Notes under the pieces: generated by a model
Database searches by the model: none
Told to the model about the DNA's origin: nothing
Seen by the model: the letters and a program-made list of their open reading frames with translations, nothing else
Position numbers and translations under genes: made by a program
IMG/VR virus record: IMGVR_UViG_3300028666_000002
Source of the DNA: a virus
DNA: 64,000 nt
Reading direction: 5' to 3' (one strand)
Shown here: piece after piece, positions 3,729-64,000 of the stretch
How positions within the stretch are numbered: position 1 is the first letter of the stretch
Layout: each line of letters starts with the position of its first letter

Positions 3729-5897
3729 ATGGCAATCACTACTCCACAACAGGAATATAAAAAATTAAGGAGTTACCTTAACCCTTACATTAAGGGGCCT
3801 AATATACAGGCCCTATTAACTGCGATGGGCTCTGCGTTCTCTTCTTATTTGGTTAATTCAGCCAGTTCAGTGAATGATCAACTTTATATCGTTACCGCTG
3901 AAGGCGTTTATTTAGATCAAAGATTAGCTGACTATGGCATATCTAGACCTGCAGGCATAGGTATTGCTGATGAAGAATTTAGTCAAATTGGCATACAGAT
4001 AAAAAACCGTAAACAAGTAAGAGATCTTCTAAATAATCTTTTAGACATTATTTTTGGAGATACATATGTTCGCGCTAGTAGCGATGCTGGAGCGATGGAA
4101 CCATACAATCTGACAAATGGCGATACTCTAGTTGTCAATTTTGATGCCGCTAACACTGTTTCTATTATTTTTAATACTAGCAATTTTGTCGATATTGCTG
4201 CCGCGACAGCGCAAGAAGTAGCAGATGTTATTACAAAAACTATAAATAGTATGGGTTTGAGAGGCATAGCTGTTGTTGGCAATAATGGTTCTGGCAATTT
4301 CGTACAACTTTTGAGTAATACTATAGGCCCAGCTTCATCCGTTACCGTATTAGGTGGAAGTGCCCAAGATCAACTTTTATTTGCGTCTATTGTTGCGGCT
4401 GGTGGAAATGCTTCTACTCAGTGGACCATTAGTTTGCCGCGTGCCGATATTGTAAGATTTACGTGGAGCGGAGGCGCAAATCCTCAATTGGGGAAAATTG
4501 TTCCGAATGATTACGTAAATATATTTGGTGGAGGATTTACCTCTTCTTCAAACGAAGGCAGTTTTACAATTATAGATGCGGTCGGTGGTCCTGTAAATAT
4601 ATCTTATTTTGAAATACACAATGCATTAGCGACTTCTGGAATTGTAACTCAAGGAATAGACGATGCGATGCTATTTTTTAATCCAGTGAAAAAAGTACTG
4701 GCAGATTTAAGATATTATGCTGCGGTCTATCAAGTAGAGACTAATAAATTACAAATTTTTCTTCCAGCCACCACAAAAGTTGTCATAAATAGTAGGATAG
4801 GAACTGCCCACATACATGATCCGCAAAATATAGTGTATACTTTTAACGCCAATCCTAATGTTGGGGATGTTTTTCACATAACCACCGCTACTTCTTTGAC
4901 TGCTGGAGTAGATTTTGCTGTTGGTTTGACTATACCAGAAACCATTGCAAATATGATCGCTACTATTGGCAGCATATCTGGACTAGACCCTGTTGCTGGC
5001 CAAAATCCAATAAAAAGTCCTAATTCTTTAGGTCAATATGCCTTCAATGTTTCTTCGGAGAATGCCACAGTCGGAGCCGTGTACGCCATTAACGGACAAA
5101 ACTTCACTGTGACTGGCACTATCTCTCTGGGAAGCAGTTTAGTTACAGTGGGATCTGGAATTGCTCCGCCTAGCACCGGAACACTCACTTTAGTTTCTGG
5201 AACCGGAAGTGCCACCATAACATATAGTTCGTATGTTTTTTCTGGCGTGAACATACTTACGATATGGCAGGATGATCCATCTTTAACTATAACCGGTACT
5301 TATACTGGGAGCGCCAACGTAGTTGCTACAGTGCAAGGAGATCCCATATCTGTTCAGCCCAATCAACCCGGTCCATATACCTATGATTTGGGGCAGCCAT
5401 TTACCGTGAGTAATATTGGCACTACTTTGACACAAAATTTAGATGCTACATATCCAAGAGTGTTTACGGTGAAGAATGCTACGCAGTTCCCGAATAGTCC
5501 AGGATATCTGATTTTTGGATATGGTACAGAACAGCAAGAGGGACCGGTGCCATACATAGCGACACCTTCCGACAATACATTGCTTTTAAGTCCAGCCTAT
5601 ACTCTTCAAAATAGTCACGTTATTGGGGAAGAAGTGTCTTTAGTATCTTTGAGATCTCAAGCTGTCATAACTCAAGATGGATTGGACTATCCGTTTTATC
5701 TTACAGATGAAGTTGGCGGACGCGTATACGCAGAAGAATTGGTAAATACTGTGGTTGCTGCGGGGATTACGGTCGTATTTAATATAATCTACCCTGGAGA
5801 CATAGGTCTTGGAAAATTTGGAACAAAATACTCTGAAATATCTATAGTTTATGGTGAAAATCAATACGGTCCAGCTAATGTAGCGGAGACAACTTAA
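3729..5897 (+). CDS. Baseplate/tail structural protein (gpI-like N-terminus)
   Basis: N-terminal TAEG.YLD..L.DYGI.RP.G..DEEF pattern typical of the protein following baseplate J; starts 2 nt after the upstream stop. Confidence 0.6.
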   Translation: MAITTPQQEYKKLRSYLNPYIKGPNIQALLTAMGSAFSSYLVNSASSVNDQLYIVTAEGVYLDQRLADYGISRPAGIGIADEEFSQIGIQIKNRKQVRDLLNNLLDIIFGDTYVRASSDAGAMEPYNLTNGDTLVVNFDAANTVSIIFNTSNFVDIAAATAQEVADVITKTINSMGLRGIAVVGNNGSGNFVQLLSNTIGPASSVTVLGGSAQDQLLFASIVAAGGNASTQWTISLPRADIVRFTWSGGANPQLGKIVPNDYVNIFGGGFTSSSNEGSFTIIDAVGGPVNISYFEIHNALATSGIVTQGIDDAMLFFNPVKKVLADLRYYAAVYQVETNKLQIFLPATTKVVINSRIGTAHIHDPQNIVYTFNANPNVGDVFHITTATSLTAGVDFAVGLTIPETIANMIATIGSISGLDPVAGQNPIKSPNSLGQYAFNVSSENATVGAVYAINGQNFTVTGTISLGSSLVTVGSGIAPPSTGTLTLVSGTGSATITYSSYVFSGVNILTIWQDDPSLTITGTYTGSANVVATVQGDPISVQPNQPGPYTYDLGQPFTVSNIGTTLTQNLDATYPRVFTVKNATQFPNSPGYLIFGYGTEQQEGPVPYIATPSDNTLLLSPAYTLQNSHVIGEEVSLVSLRSQAVITQDGLDYPFYLTDEVGGRVYAEELVNTVVAAGITVVFNIIYPGDIGLGKFGTKYSEISIVYGENQYGPANVAETT

Positions 5898-59511: not shown

Positions 59512-59820
59512 AACTACGATTCGGGATTTTGCCACTCGTGCGCCTTGTCTCCCCACATCAGTGCTAACTTAGTGGAACCTTTGTGCAGAACGCTTTCAGT
59601 ACCCAAAAATTAAGGCTCGTTTGTTTCTACCCTTAGCACGGGCCGTAGCTTCATCATGTGGCACGTCTTACGACTCAGGCTTCTCAGCCCTACCTTACGG
59701 GCAAGTACACTAGTTACCTCGCCGCCACTGACTATTAATGGGCAGGCCCCTTCACGGTCCTTTTCACCAGGCTAGTGCGGTTGTTGACTTCTAGCTGCCT
59801 CACGCATTGTACTGGCACCC
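59512..59820 (-). ncRNA. Candidate ~310-nt structured ncRNA
   Basis: GC-richer ORF-free stretch; three minus-strand GNRA hairpins; nested long-range helices and a possible pseudoknot. Confidence 0.6.
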
Positions 59821-59830
59821 AATAAAATGT

Positions 59831-59921
59831 GCTGGTGGGTCGGTGAACTGCCAACTCGAACGCGACCAATCAAAACAGAGCCGACCTGTGTATCCTCTAA
59901 GCGACTTACATCGCCACCAGC
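59831..59921 (-). ncRNA. tRNA-like RNA, family copy E (91 nt)
   Basis: GCUGGUGG/CCACCAGC, CG linker, UGUA..GA-UACA stem, GUUGG-CAGUUCA-CCGAC arm. Confidence 0.7.
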
Positions 59922-59931
59922 TAAAAATTTT

Positions 59932-60171
59932 TTTTCAAAGAATCGGAATTACACCGACTTGCCATATATGAAGTCATTGAGCATCTGCCGACTCCATCAC
60001 ATTCTTATTCCGCAAATTACTTAAATACCCAAAAGACTTAACTTGCAAGGTTTCGTTATTACCCTAATGTCACGGGTATCCACCTCGAACTCTTAGGCCA
60101 AATACCGGTGGGCTAAACGCCGTAACGGTACGTTTCATTTGCACGTGTCATGTCCACGCCGTCTTTGAAAA
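59932..60171 (-). ncRNA. tRNA-like RNA, family copy C (240 nt)
   Basis: UUUUCAAAGA/UCUUUGAAAA, CG, GCGUG-GACAUGA-CACGU, GCAAAU/AUUUGC, GUCGG-UGUAAUU-CCGAU. Confidence 0.75.
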
Positions 60172-60174
60172 TCT

Positions 60175-60232
60175 GTGCGGATCTCTCTCCGCTTGTCACG
60201 ATTTCACTCGTCGCCTACAGAGCTACTGTAAG
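60175..60232 (-). ncRNA. Small three-hairpin RNA element
   Basis: UUACAG-UAGCU-CUGUAG, ACGA-GUGAAA-UCGU, GCGGA-GAGAGA-UCCGC. Confidence 0.45.
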
Positions 60233-60239
60233 AACGGTT

Positions 60240-60349
60240 GCTGGCGGGCTAACTTCGGGGGCGACCCTGTTTTAACATCCTAGATTCCTCAAAGGTGCGG
60301 AAGATTCGCGCAATCATCCGAGCGTTTCTCATTCAACGCCGCCGCCAGC
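60240..60349 (-). ncRNA. tRNA-like RNA, family copy D (110 nt)
   Basis: GCUGGCGG/CCGCCAGC, CG, GCGUU-GAAUGAGA-AACGC (compensatory change), CGGA-U-GAUU..AAUC-U-UCCG; T-like arm degenerate. Confidence 0.7.
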
Positions 60350-60985: not shown

Positions 60986-62134
60986 TTCATAATCTCTAAT
61001 TGCAATTCCTACAGGAAATCGCGGAACTTTGGCTGCCCCAGTAAGGCCTTGGTATTTAACTGTAAGTTGCTTGTTCTGCCAAAGTTTATGATTTTCAAAG
61101 TATTCTTTGAGCTTATCTGTCTCTCCAGACATTTTAGCAAAAAATTCTTTCCCATCTGTCGTGACGCACACAAAAGCACCAACGTGTCCTGCGAGTTTTC
61201 CACGACCTTCATCAATTCCAATAATTTTGAATTCAGCATCGTCAAACTCCTTTACTTTTAACAAATCGTAACTGCGTTTATTTACATAAAGACCCGCTTC
61301 ATTGCGCACCATCGCACCTTCGTATCCTTCTTTCTTAAATTTGTTAAAACTATCAATGACTTGAGTTTCATCATATATTCTGATAGTCTCTACCACTTTT
61401 AAATATGATAGATGATTTTCCATAATCTTATCACGTAAATATTTAGATAAACTCATTTCTCTACTATAAAAAGTAGACTCGTTAATAACATCATAAATAT
61501 GATATTGAACGTTCAGATACCCATCTTCTGGATCTTCTTTTCTAACGGCAGATACTATTTTTTCAAAATCATTCTTAAAATCATGATTATACAGCTCACC
61601 ATCTAAAAACAAATGACCATCTATATGCATACCAGTTAAGGTTTCTATATCTTTAACAATATGTGGCATGGAGGTGATTTGTTTCCTGGTACGAGACCAG
61701 AGAGTACATTTACCATCTTTTAGAATGGCAATGCAGCGAATGCCATCTAATTTGGGCTGTACATAGGCCGGATACTTTACCTTATGTCCATGATCGGTAA
61801 ATTTGTGAGCTAACATAGGGACAATGCCACCTTCAATTAGATCGTCAAGCTTATCATTTTCCGCATCTTTGATAGATTCGACATATCCCTTTTTCTTTTG
61901 TTTTTCCCATTTAGCCTGCGCTTCTGCTTCCGCTTGTTGTAAGGCTGTTGTTTGGTTCTTTTTACCGATATTTTTGCCTTTCTCGATATAGTCAGTAGTT
62001 GTTTGTGGACTATCAGTGCCTAACTGCCCATAAGTGGTTTCAAACCAAGCAATTCCATCATATTCGCCAGTTTCAATTTCCCAAAATTGAATGGAGCCAG
62101 AATTATTTTTCTTATAAATTATAGGTAATTTCAT
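60983..62134 (-). CDS. ATP-dependent DNA ligase with N-terminal WGR-like domain
   Basis: PMLA, QPKLDGIR (adenylated Lys), LDGELY, EGAMVR, LLKVK, PRFPV. Confidence 0.92.
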   Translation of the reverse strand: MKLPIIYKKNNSGSIQFWEIETGEYDGIAWFETTYGQLGTDSPQTTTDYIEKGKNIGKKNQTTALQQAEAEAQAKWEKQKKKGYVESIKDAENDKLDDLIEGGIVPMLAHKFTDHGHKVKYPAYVQPKLDGIRCIAILKDGKCTLWSRTRKQITSMPHIVKDIETLTGMHIDGHLFLDGELYNHDFKNDFEKIVSAVRKEDPEDGYLNVQYHIYDVINESTFYSREMSLSKYLRDKIMENHLSYLKVVETIRIYDETQVIDSFNKFKKEGYEGAMVRNEAGLYVNKRSYDLLKVKEFDDAEFKIIGIDEGRGKLAGHVGAFVCVTTDGKEFFAKMSGETDKLKEYFENHKLWQNKQLTVKYQGLTGAAKVPRFPVGIAIRDYE

Positions 62135-62775
62135 AATTTTAAATACTCACTAGCTTTTTTAATTATTTCTGAATTATCTTTAAATAAACCTAATCCTTTA
62201 TTACACGCACCGCATAAAAGTCCCCTAATTTTACCACTTCTGTGATCGTGATCTACCACAAGAGATCTTATTTTATTAGCTCTTTTATCAAAAAGAGTTT
62301 CTTGCGAATTGCATATAGCACATAAATTACTTTGTTTTTTTACCATTAGTTCAAATTCATGTAAAGATATACCAAATTTATATAACAAAGAAAGATTTTT
62401 AAATTTTGATTTATCTGTTTTCATTCTTGCTCTTTTGCCCTTATCTTTAACTTTTTGTGGATTATTTTTTCTCCATATTTTTTGTCTCCCATATTCTTTG
62501 TGTTTATTGTTTAATCTATATAATTTATCATTTTTTTTAATTTTTTCTTTGTTATTTAATTTGTATAATTTATGTCTCTTGAGTTCCTTGTCTTTATTGT
62601 TTACCAAATATTTAATTCTTGCTAATTTATTGCAATTATTACATTTATAATTTAATCCATCTTTGCTTGCTTTATTTTTACAAAATTCTATATGTAATTT
62701 ATGTTGTTTACATACATTGCAAACTTTTCTATTTTCCATATCCGCCCTTATAAATAGCATTAAGTCTTTCATCAA
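62131..62775 (-). CDS. Recombination endonuclease VII-type (HNH) endonuclease
   Basis: N-terminal C..C...C..C; Q..LCAIC...LVVDHDH.SG.IRGLLC..CN.GLG.FKD. Confidence 0.85.
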   Translation of the reverse strand: MMKDLMLFIRADMENRKVCNVCKQHKLHIEFCKNKASKDGLNYKCNNCNKLARIKYLVNNKDKELKRHKLYKLNNKEKIKKNDKLYRLNNKHKEYGRQKIWRKNNPQKVKDKGKRARMKTDKSKFKNLSLLYKFGISLHEFELMVKKQSNLCAICNSQETLFDKRANKIRSLVVDHDHRSGKIRGLLCGACNKGLGLFKDNSEIIKKASEYLKL

Positions 62776-63565
62776 GGTATTGTTGTGCCGTAACGCCTGG
62801 TACTAGAATAGTATCACCATTGGCATGAACAAACAATGGGATTGACAACCTATCCGAATTGGAATTATCAGGGTTGACAACCCTATGTGTAGTAGACTTA
62901 AACCGCCCACCGCTAGCAAGCTGAAGCATATCTCCTGCGTTTACGATCAAAGAGTTTTCTTCAAAAGGTACGGAATGCCACCGTCCAACATTATCTTGAA
63001 CTTCTAATCCTGGAGCACTAGCGGCAACCAATAGTGTAAGAATGTTGATGTCCTCATGAGCTGCTGCCCTTACGGCACCCGGTTCTTGTTTGATACTGTC
63101 CAGGGATGGGTAATAAATTGCCCTCATGAGGGTATTATTGCTATTTCTACACACCTCAACAAAATCTACTGGGATTGATTCGTTCCTATTTAGGGCGTGA
63201 AGCAAACGACCAGAAACATCTCCTTCTAGAAGAGAATAAAGTTTTTGAGTAAGAACTGACACTTCATCTGGAAGCCGTACTCCTGGTTTATAGTGAAAAA
63301 ATTCTTTAATATCAGCAACTTGTGCTCCTACAGCCTTTTCGCCACCAAATCCCGTAAATCCCAAATTTGAATCTTTGGAATTGACAAATTGATCCTTATA
63401 GCTTCTATTTTTATTGAAAAACTCTTTCCATCCGGCTTGGGTATCACGAATAAGACCTAGGTCTACGCCGAAATTCTTCACCACCGCAAACCCCGTAGAA
63501 ATTATGGATTCCATGAAATCATAATCGAAATCTTTTGACCTTAAACTGATTACCTTTACATCCAT
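62729..63565 (-). CDS. 2-oxoglutarate/Fe(II) dioxygenase, IPNS-like family
   Basis: TGFAVV.N.G, HEDIN (HxD), NAGDMLQ, STTHRV, RLSIPLF (RxS). Confidence 0.9.
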   Translation of the reverse strand: MDVKVISLRSKDFDYDFMESIISTGFAVVKNFGVDLGLIRDTQAGWKEFFNKNRSYKDQFVNSKDSNLGFTGFGGEKAVGAQVADIKEFFHYKPGVRLPDEVSVLTQKLYSLLEGDVSGRLLHALNRNESIPVDFVEVCRNSNNTLMRAIYYPSLDSIKQEPGAVRAAAHEDINILTLLVAASAPGLEVQDNVGRWHSVPFEENSLIVNAGDMLQLASGGRFKSTTHRVVNPDNSNSDRLSIPLFVHANGDTILVPGVTAQQYLDERLNAIYKGGYGK

Positions 63566-63583
63566 ATATTCTCCAAAATTAAG

Positions 63584-63709
63584 GCTAACGAATCAGGATT
63601 CGAACCTGACATTTTCACCCGTCCTACCGGACGGTATTGTTCCTTATACCGAATCGAACGGTTTCACCGTGATTCCCATCACGATGGGGCTAGCCAAACC
63701 CTCGCCAGC
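63584..63709 (-). ncRNA. tRNA-like RNA with canonical T-arm and multiple internal hairpins (126 nt)
   Basis: GCUGGCGAG/UUCGUUAGC terminal stem; UCAGG-UUCGAAU-CCUGA; no normal anticodon arm, no encoded CCA. Confidence 0.75.
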
Positions 63710-63717
63710 TAATCTTA

Positions 63718-63746
63718 AGTATATAAGGACACTTTAATAAAGGCAA
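63718..63746 (-). promoter_or_regulatory. Sigma70-type promoter TTGCCT-N17-TATACT
   Basis: 17-nt spacer; predicted +1 near 63710, at the 5' end of the 126-nt RNA. Confidence 0.7.
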
Positions 63747-63754
63747 GGTGATTT

Positions 63755-64000
63755 ATGGATTGGACAAATGGATCAGAACAAGTAACTGAGCATTTTACAG
63801 TAGCAGACTGTTTAATGTTACATAATTGGAATAGATTGGCAACACTAGATGACAATGCAGACTTCGATAAACTTACTGCATTGTGTCAAAAACTTGAAGA
63901 AGTTAGAACAGCGCTCGGCTGTCCAATGAATGTGCATTGCATTTTTAGGTCTAAAGCCTACAATATCGCTCAAAGAATCCTATTGCCTACCGGTTTAGAT
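63755..64000 (+). CDS. Peptidase M15-like (endolysin candidate), 3'-truncated
   Basis: Hand translation MDWTNGSEQVTEHFTVADCL...LCQKLEEVRTALGCPMNVHCIFRSKAYN resembles the M15A N-terminus. Confidence 0.6.
   Translation, partial: MDWTNGSEQVTEHFTVADCLMLHNWNRLATLDDNADFDKLTALCQKLEEVRTALGCPMNVHCIFRSKAYNIAQRILLPTGLD

Follow-up and report, generated by a model that had tools for sequence, protein, structure and literature searches.

A 126-nucleotide (nt) RNA module shaped like a transfer RNA (tRNA), designated element F, was found directly behind a predicted promoter on the minus strand of a 64,000-nt stretch of viral DNA (IMG/VR record IMGVR_UViG_3300028666_000002; the whole stretch is referred to below as the window). 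F lies in a 189-bp intergenic region between divergent genes and is therefore the 5′ leader of the messenger RNA (mRNA) of an oxygenase gene. It carries a perfect T-arm, has neither a 7-nt anticodon loop nor an encoded CCA, and occupies a slot at which related phages carry other structured RNAs or none. F looks like a swappable tRNA-mimic module. We favour, at somewhat less than an even chance, the reading that cleavage releases F from the mRNA and that the released RNA survives as a stable tRNA mimic unable to decode, comparable to species 1 RNA of phage T4.

Position and promoter of element F

The features of the F region, in the order of transcription, are:

63718-63746, minus strand: predicted sigma-70-type promoter TTGCCT-N17-TATACT, score 9/12
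63584-63709, minus strand: element F, 126-nt tRNA-shaped RNA module, minimum free energy (MFE) -52.2 kcal/mol, z-score -4.2 to -4.9
63566-63583, minus strand: discriminator-like C, U-rich spacer UUAAUUUU and Shine-Dalgarno sequence GGAG, unpaired in the fold
62729-63565, minus strand: 2-oxoglutarate (2OG)-Fe(II) oxygenase gene, 278 amino acids (aa), Pfam 2OG-FeII_Oxy 2e-20 and DIOX_N 2e-10
62131-62775, minus strand: open reading frame (ORF) of 214 aa, placed between the genes for the oxygenase and the ligase, with an endonuclease VII domain at its C terminus

Since the promoter sits at 63746-63718, the transcription start (+1) is predicted at about 63710-63709. TAAGATT directly follows the -10 hexamer, and TAAGATTA stands between this hexamer and the 126-nt stretch 63709-63584. 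The 5′ end of F is thus 1-2 nt from the predicted +1, and its 3′ end is 9 nt ahead of the Shine-Dalgarno sequence; the order 3′ of F is C-UUAAUUUU-GGAG-AAUAU-AUG, where AUG is the start codon of the oxygenase gene. On the other side of the intergenic region, a peptidase M15-like gene begins at 63755 and runs in the opposite direction. The promoter, the T-arm and the other features listed for this locus in the initial annotation, which had been made from the sequence alone, were all present where it had placed them. That F leads the oxygenase mRNA, and that the contents of this slot vary among relatives, had not been noted in it.

Downstream of F, on the same strand, follow the oxygenase gene, the endonuclease VII-domain ORF, an ATP-dependent DNA ligase gene, an RNA element designated copy B, a cytochrome c-like ORF, a small ORF, the further elements designated copies D, C and E, and a structured stretch of about 310 nt. 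The endonuclease VII-domain ORF was probably inserted here as a mobile nuclease gene. No minus-strand terminator was predicted.

Predicted fold of element F

F folds with an MFE of -52.2 to -52.4 kcal/mol, compared with -36 kcal/mol for dinucleotide shuffles (z -4.2 to -4.9), and none of 200 shuffles folded as well. The fold did not change when 55 nt of downstream mRNA were added, and the Shine-Dalgarno sequence stayed unpaired. F therefore folds autonomously and is unlike the expression platform of a riboswitch or attenuator. The helices, all on the minus strand, with their base-pair probabilities (p), are:

63702-63709 with 63591-63584: terminal stem of 8 bp, GCUGGCGA/UCGUUAGC, p 0.98
63687-63701: D-arm-like hairpin GGGUU-UGGCU-AGCCC, whose loop contains GG, with no gap to the terminal stem, p 0.98
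63665-63686: 9-bp hairpin CAUCGUGAU-GGGA-AUCACGGUG with a GNRA tetraloop, at the place of an anticodon arm, p 1.0
63648-63662: second T-loop-like hairpin ACCG-UUCGAUU-CGGU, part of the MFE fold and excluding the AAGGAACA hairpin, p 0.83
63632-63651: alternative hairpin CGGUAU-AAGGAACA-AUACCG, p 0.06
63619-63634: hairpin CCGUCC-GGUA-GGACGG, p 0.93
63592-63610: canonical T-arm GUCAGG-UUCGAAU-CCUGAU, p 0.97

The arms thus come in the order terminal stem, D-like hairpin, capped stem, extra arm and T-arm. The T-arm is stacked directly on the terminal stem, giving 8 + 6 = 14 bp. Two pairs of the terminal stem are G-U and therefore form only in the minus-strand RNA. The T-arm has a UUCRANN loop closed by a G-C pair, a pattern that ACCG-UUCGAUU-CGGU fits as well. 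The 11-mer GGTTCGAATCC of the T-arm occurs only once in the window, at 63606-63596 with 0 mismatches, and about 0.03 exact matches are expected by chance in 128 kb of two-strand sequence; the perfect T-arm of the initial annotation is therefore exact and single. In a second conformer, just 2 kcal/mol above the MFE, the AAGGAACA hairpin and the pairing CCGUUC/GGACGG form a long 'variable arm'. The outline of this modelled conformer would be that of a class II tRNA cloverleaf with a tetraloop replacing the anticodon loop.

The fold that had been drawn by eye was recovered in part. The terminal stem (8 bp, where 9 had been given), the D-like hairpin, GUCC-GGUA-GGAC in the extended form CCGUCC-GGUA-GGACGG and the T-arm were predicted with high probability; CCAU-CGUG-AUGG and ACGG-UGAAA-CCGU had a probability of 0, their place being taken by the single 9-bp hairpin with the GGGA loop, and CGGUAU-AAGGAACA-AUACCG is the minor alternative listed above. 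As a whole, the earlier fold evaluates to -34.7 kcal/mol, against -52.2 kcal/mol for the MFE structure.

Searches for tRNA, tmRNA, Y RNA and riboswitch families

ARAGORN at default settings found 0 tRNA and 0 transfer-messenger RNA (tmRNA) genes in the whole window, and its tmRNA mode gave nothing for F even at a lowered threshold. Rfam 15 gave nothing at gathering scores in the window. At E-values up to 10, the 500 nt around F showed no tRNA, tmRNA, Y RNA, T-box, riboswitch or cis-regulator, and the sole match was a chance one to the sau-31 small RNA (E 8.8). Neither a conventional or intron-bearing tRNA score nor membership of a known Y RNA family, the two outcomes named beforehand as contradicting a mimic, was obtained with ARAGORN at default settings or Rfam. 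With a T-arm on the terminal stem, a GG-loop hairpin, a tetraloop-capped stem and negative results from both programs, the earlier description of F as a tRNA mimic and not a tRNA holds, as does the lack of a standard anticodon arm and CCA.

We considered whether F could be a functional class II, intron-bearing tRNA-Leu with anticodon AAG, or a metabolite- or tRNA-sensing riboswitch or attenuator of the oxygenase gene, and regard both as highly improbable. ARAGORN run with -i -ps, which allows introns and lowers thresholds, does draw F as tRNA-Leu(AAG) with a 33-nt intron, UUAAUUUU after the terminal stem is a weak terminator-like tail, and the two conformers are at most 2 kcal/mol apart. However, the acceptor and anticodon stems of the ARAGORN drawing contain mismatches, and default thresholds do not yield it. 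Where the anticodon arm of a tRNA has 5 bp and a loop of 7 nt, F has 9 bp capped by GGGA, and instead of a coaxial stack of 7 + 5 = 12 bp it has 14 stacked pairs. The Rfam searches gave no tRNA, T-box or riboswitch, and the Shine-Dalgarno sequence is free in every predicted fold. One of the cassettes found at the same slot in related phages (L142) has no U-tract behind it, and the presence of differing cassettes there argues against a single ligand.

A blastn search of F against 50,697 phage records gave no match. The pattern CTAAGATTNGCTGGNG matched 120 loci in IMG/VR, nearly all of them chance matches within genes after filtering for the closing stem, and only L044 and L088 (the L008 contig) appeared related.

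A fragment of a host tRNA, or a phage attachment site (attP), was tried as an explanation and rejected: a 27-mer covering the T-arm and the 3′ strand had 0 matches in IMG/VR and a 25-mer had 0 in 185,579 species genomes, and this reading is unlikely because the 3′ part of F copies no bacterial tRNA gene nor IMG/VR contig. A miniature inverted-repeat transposable element or other repeat was also rejected, as the window holds no other full or partial copy of F and the cores of copies A-E differ.

The leader slot in related phages

About 40 orthologous oxygenase loci were collected (numbered with L); the comparison was made without the DNA of P0003, P0004, P0006 and P0007, the closest oxygenase relatives (67-70% identity). 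Relatives of the oxygenase number in the thousands, many of them on phage contigs of 160-177 kb. The promoter arrangement CCTTGC...TATACT...AAGATT was found upstream of the orthologous gene in most relatives. At most of the loci without a cassette, the promoter is followed by GGAGG-ATG and the distance from AAGATT to ATG is just 11-24 nt. At nine loci this distance is 98-150 nt, and a tenth cassette locus, L005, has a 62-nt stem-closed element (CUGGCGG...CCGCCAG) before an inserted DUF559-type ORF. The structured cassettes at the leader slot measure 62-128 nt and are confined to one part of the oxygenase tree. On the maximum-likelihood tree, nine of 11 rows on one side carry a cassette and none of 17 on the other; 3 changes suffice to explain the cassette label, fewer than in any of 500 shuffles.

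The frame of the cassettes recurs. Every insert, and with it the stem in F, L006, L008, L009, L011, L142, L146 and L217, begins 6-8 nt past the -10 hexamer. Most cassettes start with GGCUGG or GCUGG and end with the complement, and most have a U-rich tail and a Shine-Dalgarno sequence behind them; a tail and Shine-Dalgarno sequence like those of F are found after the cassettes of L005, L006, L008, L009, L011 and L146. The start of F, GCUGGYGR, is common to copies B, D and E of the window and to the cassettes of L008, L009, L011 and L146. The GCUGG start had previously been noted for copies D and E, which was correct and applies to copy B as well.

The cores appear unrelated, and F was present in no phage other than this one and its 98% relatives L003 and L004. 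The slot of L006 holds a 71-nt tRNA-like element (3914-3984; Rfam tRNA 32.3 bits) with a 6-nt 'anticodon' loop. A different core, containing ...AAAAUGCCGU/GCCAUUAUCCGC ... GGAUCGYGGGUAAAA, is shared at the same slot by four loci:

L146, 263-364
L008, 1351-1478
L142, 138-252
L217, 308-421

Cassettes of this type had no Rfam match at E up to 5, and their consensus fold is weakly resolved; MAFFT aligns GGACGGGUGAAAAU of F with AUCGCGGGUAAAA of these cassettes as a putative common core. The cassettes of L009 and L011 are two further 81-nt folds with no Rfam match. L006 and L146 are well-supported sisters (100/99) with different cassette types; cassettes have therefore been replaced and have not merely diverged.

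These data bear on the main rival reading, that F is a purely cis-acting 5′ leader. A structure at +1 would shield the mRNA from 5′-end-dependent decay or insulate the ribosome-binding site; the core would be free to vary, and the T-arm would be left over from tRNA-derived DNA. E. coli leaders of the ompA type have 5′-terminal stem-loops that stabilise the mRNA. No cassette begins more than 1-2 nt from the predicted +1, and each stops immediately ahead of the Shine-Dalgarno sequence; the closing stem and tail are kept while the cores appear unrelated, and copy B too directly precedes UUUAUUUGGAGG and a start codon. On the other hand, one hairpin would suffice for such a role, whereas F has four or five helices, a z-score of -4.9 and one or two perfect T-loops; a leader of 11-24 nt is enough for most relatives; and no gene comes immediately after the array of copies D, C and E, which resembles tRNA arrays more than per-gene regulators. 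We consider a purely cis-acting role somewhat unlikely.

Apparent exchange of cassettes between closely related phages

The window and L003 are 96% identical around F. Within the 189 nt of the intergenic region, 4 neighbouring nucleotides differ. They fall in the loop and the 3′ strand of the D-like hairpin, which in L003 reads GGGU-UUGGUAG-ACCC, so that the stem is kept despite the 4 changes. The oxygenases of the two phages are 98% identical and the ligases merely 70-74%; they are mosaic phages. The endonuclease VII-domain ORF is found in the window only, and in L003 the oxygenase and ligase genes abut.

A whole block of RNA elements also differs between the two. The window carries a 510-nt block with copies D, C and E at 59831-60349, where L003 has, between identical flanks, one 83-nt element (4668-4752) closed by the stem GCUGGCAG/CUGCCAGC. 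Short conserved stems look like joints for cassette exchange. The sequence UAAGGAAC(U)AAUACC is common to F and to this L003 element, in which it is displayed in a hairpin loop, and it therefore supports the AAGGAACA arm of F. This suggests, from the sequences, that hairpin modules may be shuffled between elements.

A tRNA gene in decay, or a chimera assembled from pieces of tRNAs, either of them now functionless, would also fit a region that is syntenic with tRNA loci of relatives (see below), where cassettes are gained and lost between 98% relatives and no purifying selection is measurable (F region against L003, P 0.16). Decay would hardly leave a very strong fold (z -4.9) with all helices intact, though, and the sole differences from L003 preserve the hairpin. 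The two G-U pairs of the terminal stem still pair, although they are not demonstrable as compensated changes. A relic of this kind is, in our judgement, quite unlikely.

tRNA-locus context and Ro60/TROVE

In L001 a tRNA-Met gene was found right after the ligase gene, where the window has copy B, and a weak tRNA stands 630 nt ahead of the oxygenase gene of L010. Since tRNAs lie near the same place in relatives, the island around F is the counterpart of a phage tRNA locus. Three complete relatives gave 6-18 tRNA matches each, and the 64-kb window none.

L001 also carries a TROVE+vWA (Ro60-like) gene, at 1219-2772, immediately before the oxygenase orthologue. This gene is in turn preceded by two structured RNAs sharing CGGUUACUUCAUU (L001 830-1100). 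One of these sequences, 862-934, about 280 nt before the TROVE gene, is tRNA-like, is closed by a stem and has a GUAA tetraloop on its anticodon stem; it scores 44.5 bits with the Rfam tRNA model, and ARAGORN reports it as 'tRNA-???'.

F might on these grounds be a Y RNA-like partner of a phage or host Ro60/TROVE protein; the conserved GCUGGCGA stem would then be the handle that the protein binds, and the tRNA-like part would act as effector module. The only support for such a reading is the L001 TROVE gene and its RNAs, the tRNA-like one having an outline like that of F, to which may be added that GGCGAGG at nt 4-10 of F, in its 5′ strand, is one mismatch from the YrlA motif GNCGAAN0-1G. This 5′ strand also resembles the start of vertebrate Y RNAs, GGCUGGUCCGA. 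YrlA RNAs have the arm order V-T-AS-D, end at the anticodon side and have a Ro60/TROVE gene no more than about 4 kb away on their own strand; they carry the GNCGAAN0-1G motif near the 5′ end and match an Infernal model (PMC4201824, Chen et al. 2014). In F the arm order is not permuted, and no Y RNA was matched in Rfam at E up to 10. A tblastn search of the 64-kb window with the L001 TROVE protein found no TROVE gene (best E 0.51), as the initial annotation had said of Ro60, and TROVE was absent from three complete related phages and four related fragments, three of which have a leader cassette. L001 itself has no GCUGG-type leader. The suggestion that F is YrlA-like is not borne out, and we regard a Ro60 partnership as very doubtful.

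Comparison with known systems

To our knowledge, non-decoding tRNA look-alikes of phages have been known since T4 species 1 RNA, and none has been assigned a function. Species 1 RNA, encoded by rnaC (NC_000866, 70908-71046), is 139 nt long against 126 nt for F, and both are in a tRNA-cluster setting. Like F, it has a terminal stem stacked on a canonical T-arm (CCGGG-UUCGAAU-CCCGG) and long hairpins that replace the anticodon arm, and its fold is about as strong (z -4.6, against -4.9). In the 6-kb T4 tRNA region, rnaC is the top match to a model of F (13.5 bits, E 0.009), a weak match made mostly through the T-arm. The likeness in sequence is limited to the T-arm, and 13.5 bits are no proof of homology. 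Moreover, rnaC is a late RNA behind tRNA genes and has no GCUGG-type stem, whereas F heads an mRNA and has a sigma-70-type promoter in front of it. rnaC is still without an assigned function (PMC9697503).

The 3′ 93 nt of rnaC (L218 2410-2502) also gave 17.5 bits with the Rfam tRNA-Sec model (E 0.92), beside the 13.5 bits with the F model; what both models recognise is a stack of an 8-bp stem and a 5-bp T-arm.

The YrlA RNAs, and the bacterial and mycobacteriophage Y RNAs in general, are like F in being non-decoding, in having tRNA-like T and D arms and a closing stem, and in occurring in phages. F differs from YrlA in its normal tRNA arm order, in the lack of a TROVE gene in the window and of an Rfam match, and in the mismatch in the motif. 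Nearer at hand are the elements of L006 (3914-3984) and L001 (862-934), which belong to the same phage lineage and combine a canonical T-arm with a shortened or tetraloop-capped anticodon arm, the L006 element in exactly the leader slot of F. Unlike F, they are compact bodies of 71-73 nt that still score as tRNA in Rfam, with ARAGORN giving nothing or 'tRNA-???'; F has 126 nt, extra arms, a 14-bp acceptor/T stack and no tRNA score.

Co-transcripts of tRNA and mRNA, such as E. coli thrU-tufB and the mitochondrial 'tRNA punctuation', contain decoding tRNAs that are processed next to a coding region. F resembles them as a tRNA-shaped module beside a coding region, followed by an A/U-rich spacer such as RNase E cuts. 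Those modules are true tRNAs that decode, whereas F would be a non-decoding module that may be processed.

Proposed origin and role of the F RNA

In the mechanism that we infer for F, which covers its transcription, processing, stability and any binding partner, F would be the extreme 5′ end of a transcript from the conserved oxygenase promoter and unable to decode. It would be one cassette among several in a lineage-specific family whose RNAs are closed by a stem (GCUGGYGR ... complement) ahead of an A/U-rich tail. This family would belong to a clade of tailed phages of about 170 kb, at the leader slot and at positions like those of tRNA arrays. Transcription would start 1-2 nt ahead of the terminal stem, and the module would fold alone. 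Host processing of the tRNA type or the RNase E type may then cut the U-rich spacer just 3′ of the stem, leaving a stable RNA of about 126 nt and a defined 5′ end of the oxygenase mRNA. The freed F would show a T-arm (the tRNA 'elbow') and no anticodon loop; F could therefore occupy proteins that bind the tRNA body without being decoded or cut there. Possible targets are T-arm modifiers, tRNA-targeting nucleases and repair enzymes. Phage tRNAs are reported to counter anticodon nucleases (PMC10264068, PMC11555353).

In favour of this reading we count the strong autonomous fold with its T-arm, the free Shine-Dalgarno sequence, the constant placement of the stem, the leader lengths, the clustering of cassettes on the oxygenase tree, the tRNA-like element of L006, the tRNA-locus context, the gene-less D-C-E array, the shared outline with rnaC and the strand-specific G-U pairs. 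Several points weigh against F being such a freed mimic. An F-only model (R1) found just F and its 98% relative, with no further copies in 313 kb of related loci and five related phage records, and there is no covariation for F as a whole. The 4 changes in the 189 intergenic nt, compared with a divergence of 3.7% at third codon positions, give P 0.16, the pair being too close to show selection. The stack of acceptor plus T-arm has 14 bp, not 12, and RNase P, RNase Z and the CCA-adding enzyme may not treat F as a tRNA. Other cassettes in the slot have no T-arm, and tRNA mimicry is therefore not the common feature of the slot. Finally, a structured 5′ end alone would explain the position of F.

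A wider proposal, which we consider unlikely as a whole, is a cassette system in which a constant frame would deliver interchangeable 'bait' RNAs, exchanged between co-infecting phages and acting as decoys or inhibitors of host defences directed at tRNA or RNA. The frame would consist of a strong promoter or operon position, the GCUGGYGR closing stem as a handle or recombination joint, and the U-rich processing tail; the baits would be anticodon-less tRNA bodies, GNRA-rich folds and the RNA with the AUCGYGGGUAAAA core.

F is a kind of phage RNA already known but unexplained, and the behaviour of the cassettes is unexpected. The locus adds a clean example of a non-decoding tRNA look-alike at the very start of an mRNA, evidence that unrelated structured RNAs occupy one slot among sister phages, and evidence for the exchange of entire cassettes, with the short closing stem kept, between phages that are 98% identical. 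If freed RNAs do act on host tRNA-binding enzymes or defence nucleases, the cassettes would be an RNA-based counter-defence tool kit and a natural set of swap experiments. If they are only leaders, they would show phages building the 5′ ends of mRNAs from parts of tRNAs.

Other motifs and structured elements

GCTGGYGR occurs 16 times in the window (both strands) against 3.5 expected, and none of 100 shuffles reached 16. Six of these occurrences are ends of the RNA copies B, D, E and F; the other ten lie in genes, mostly along the direction of transcription. GCTGGTGG coincides with the Chi sequence of E. coli, and many copies are in coding sequence.

L003 has, at 4174-4240, a short element closed by UAGCAG...CUGCUAA, with a GG-loop hairpin, just before the cytochrome c-like gene; the window lacks this element. 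The stem that closes it agrees with the acceptor of the tRNA-like leader element of L006, and its fold is weak (z -0.8).

The stretch of about 310 nt after copy E (window 59512-59835) is structured and rich in GNRA loops. It had no Rfam match at E up to 10, and it is 97.6% identical in L003 though the adjacent D-C-E block has been swapped.

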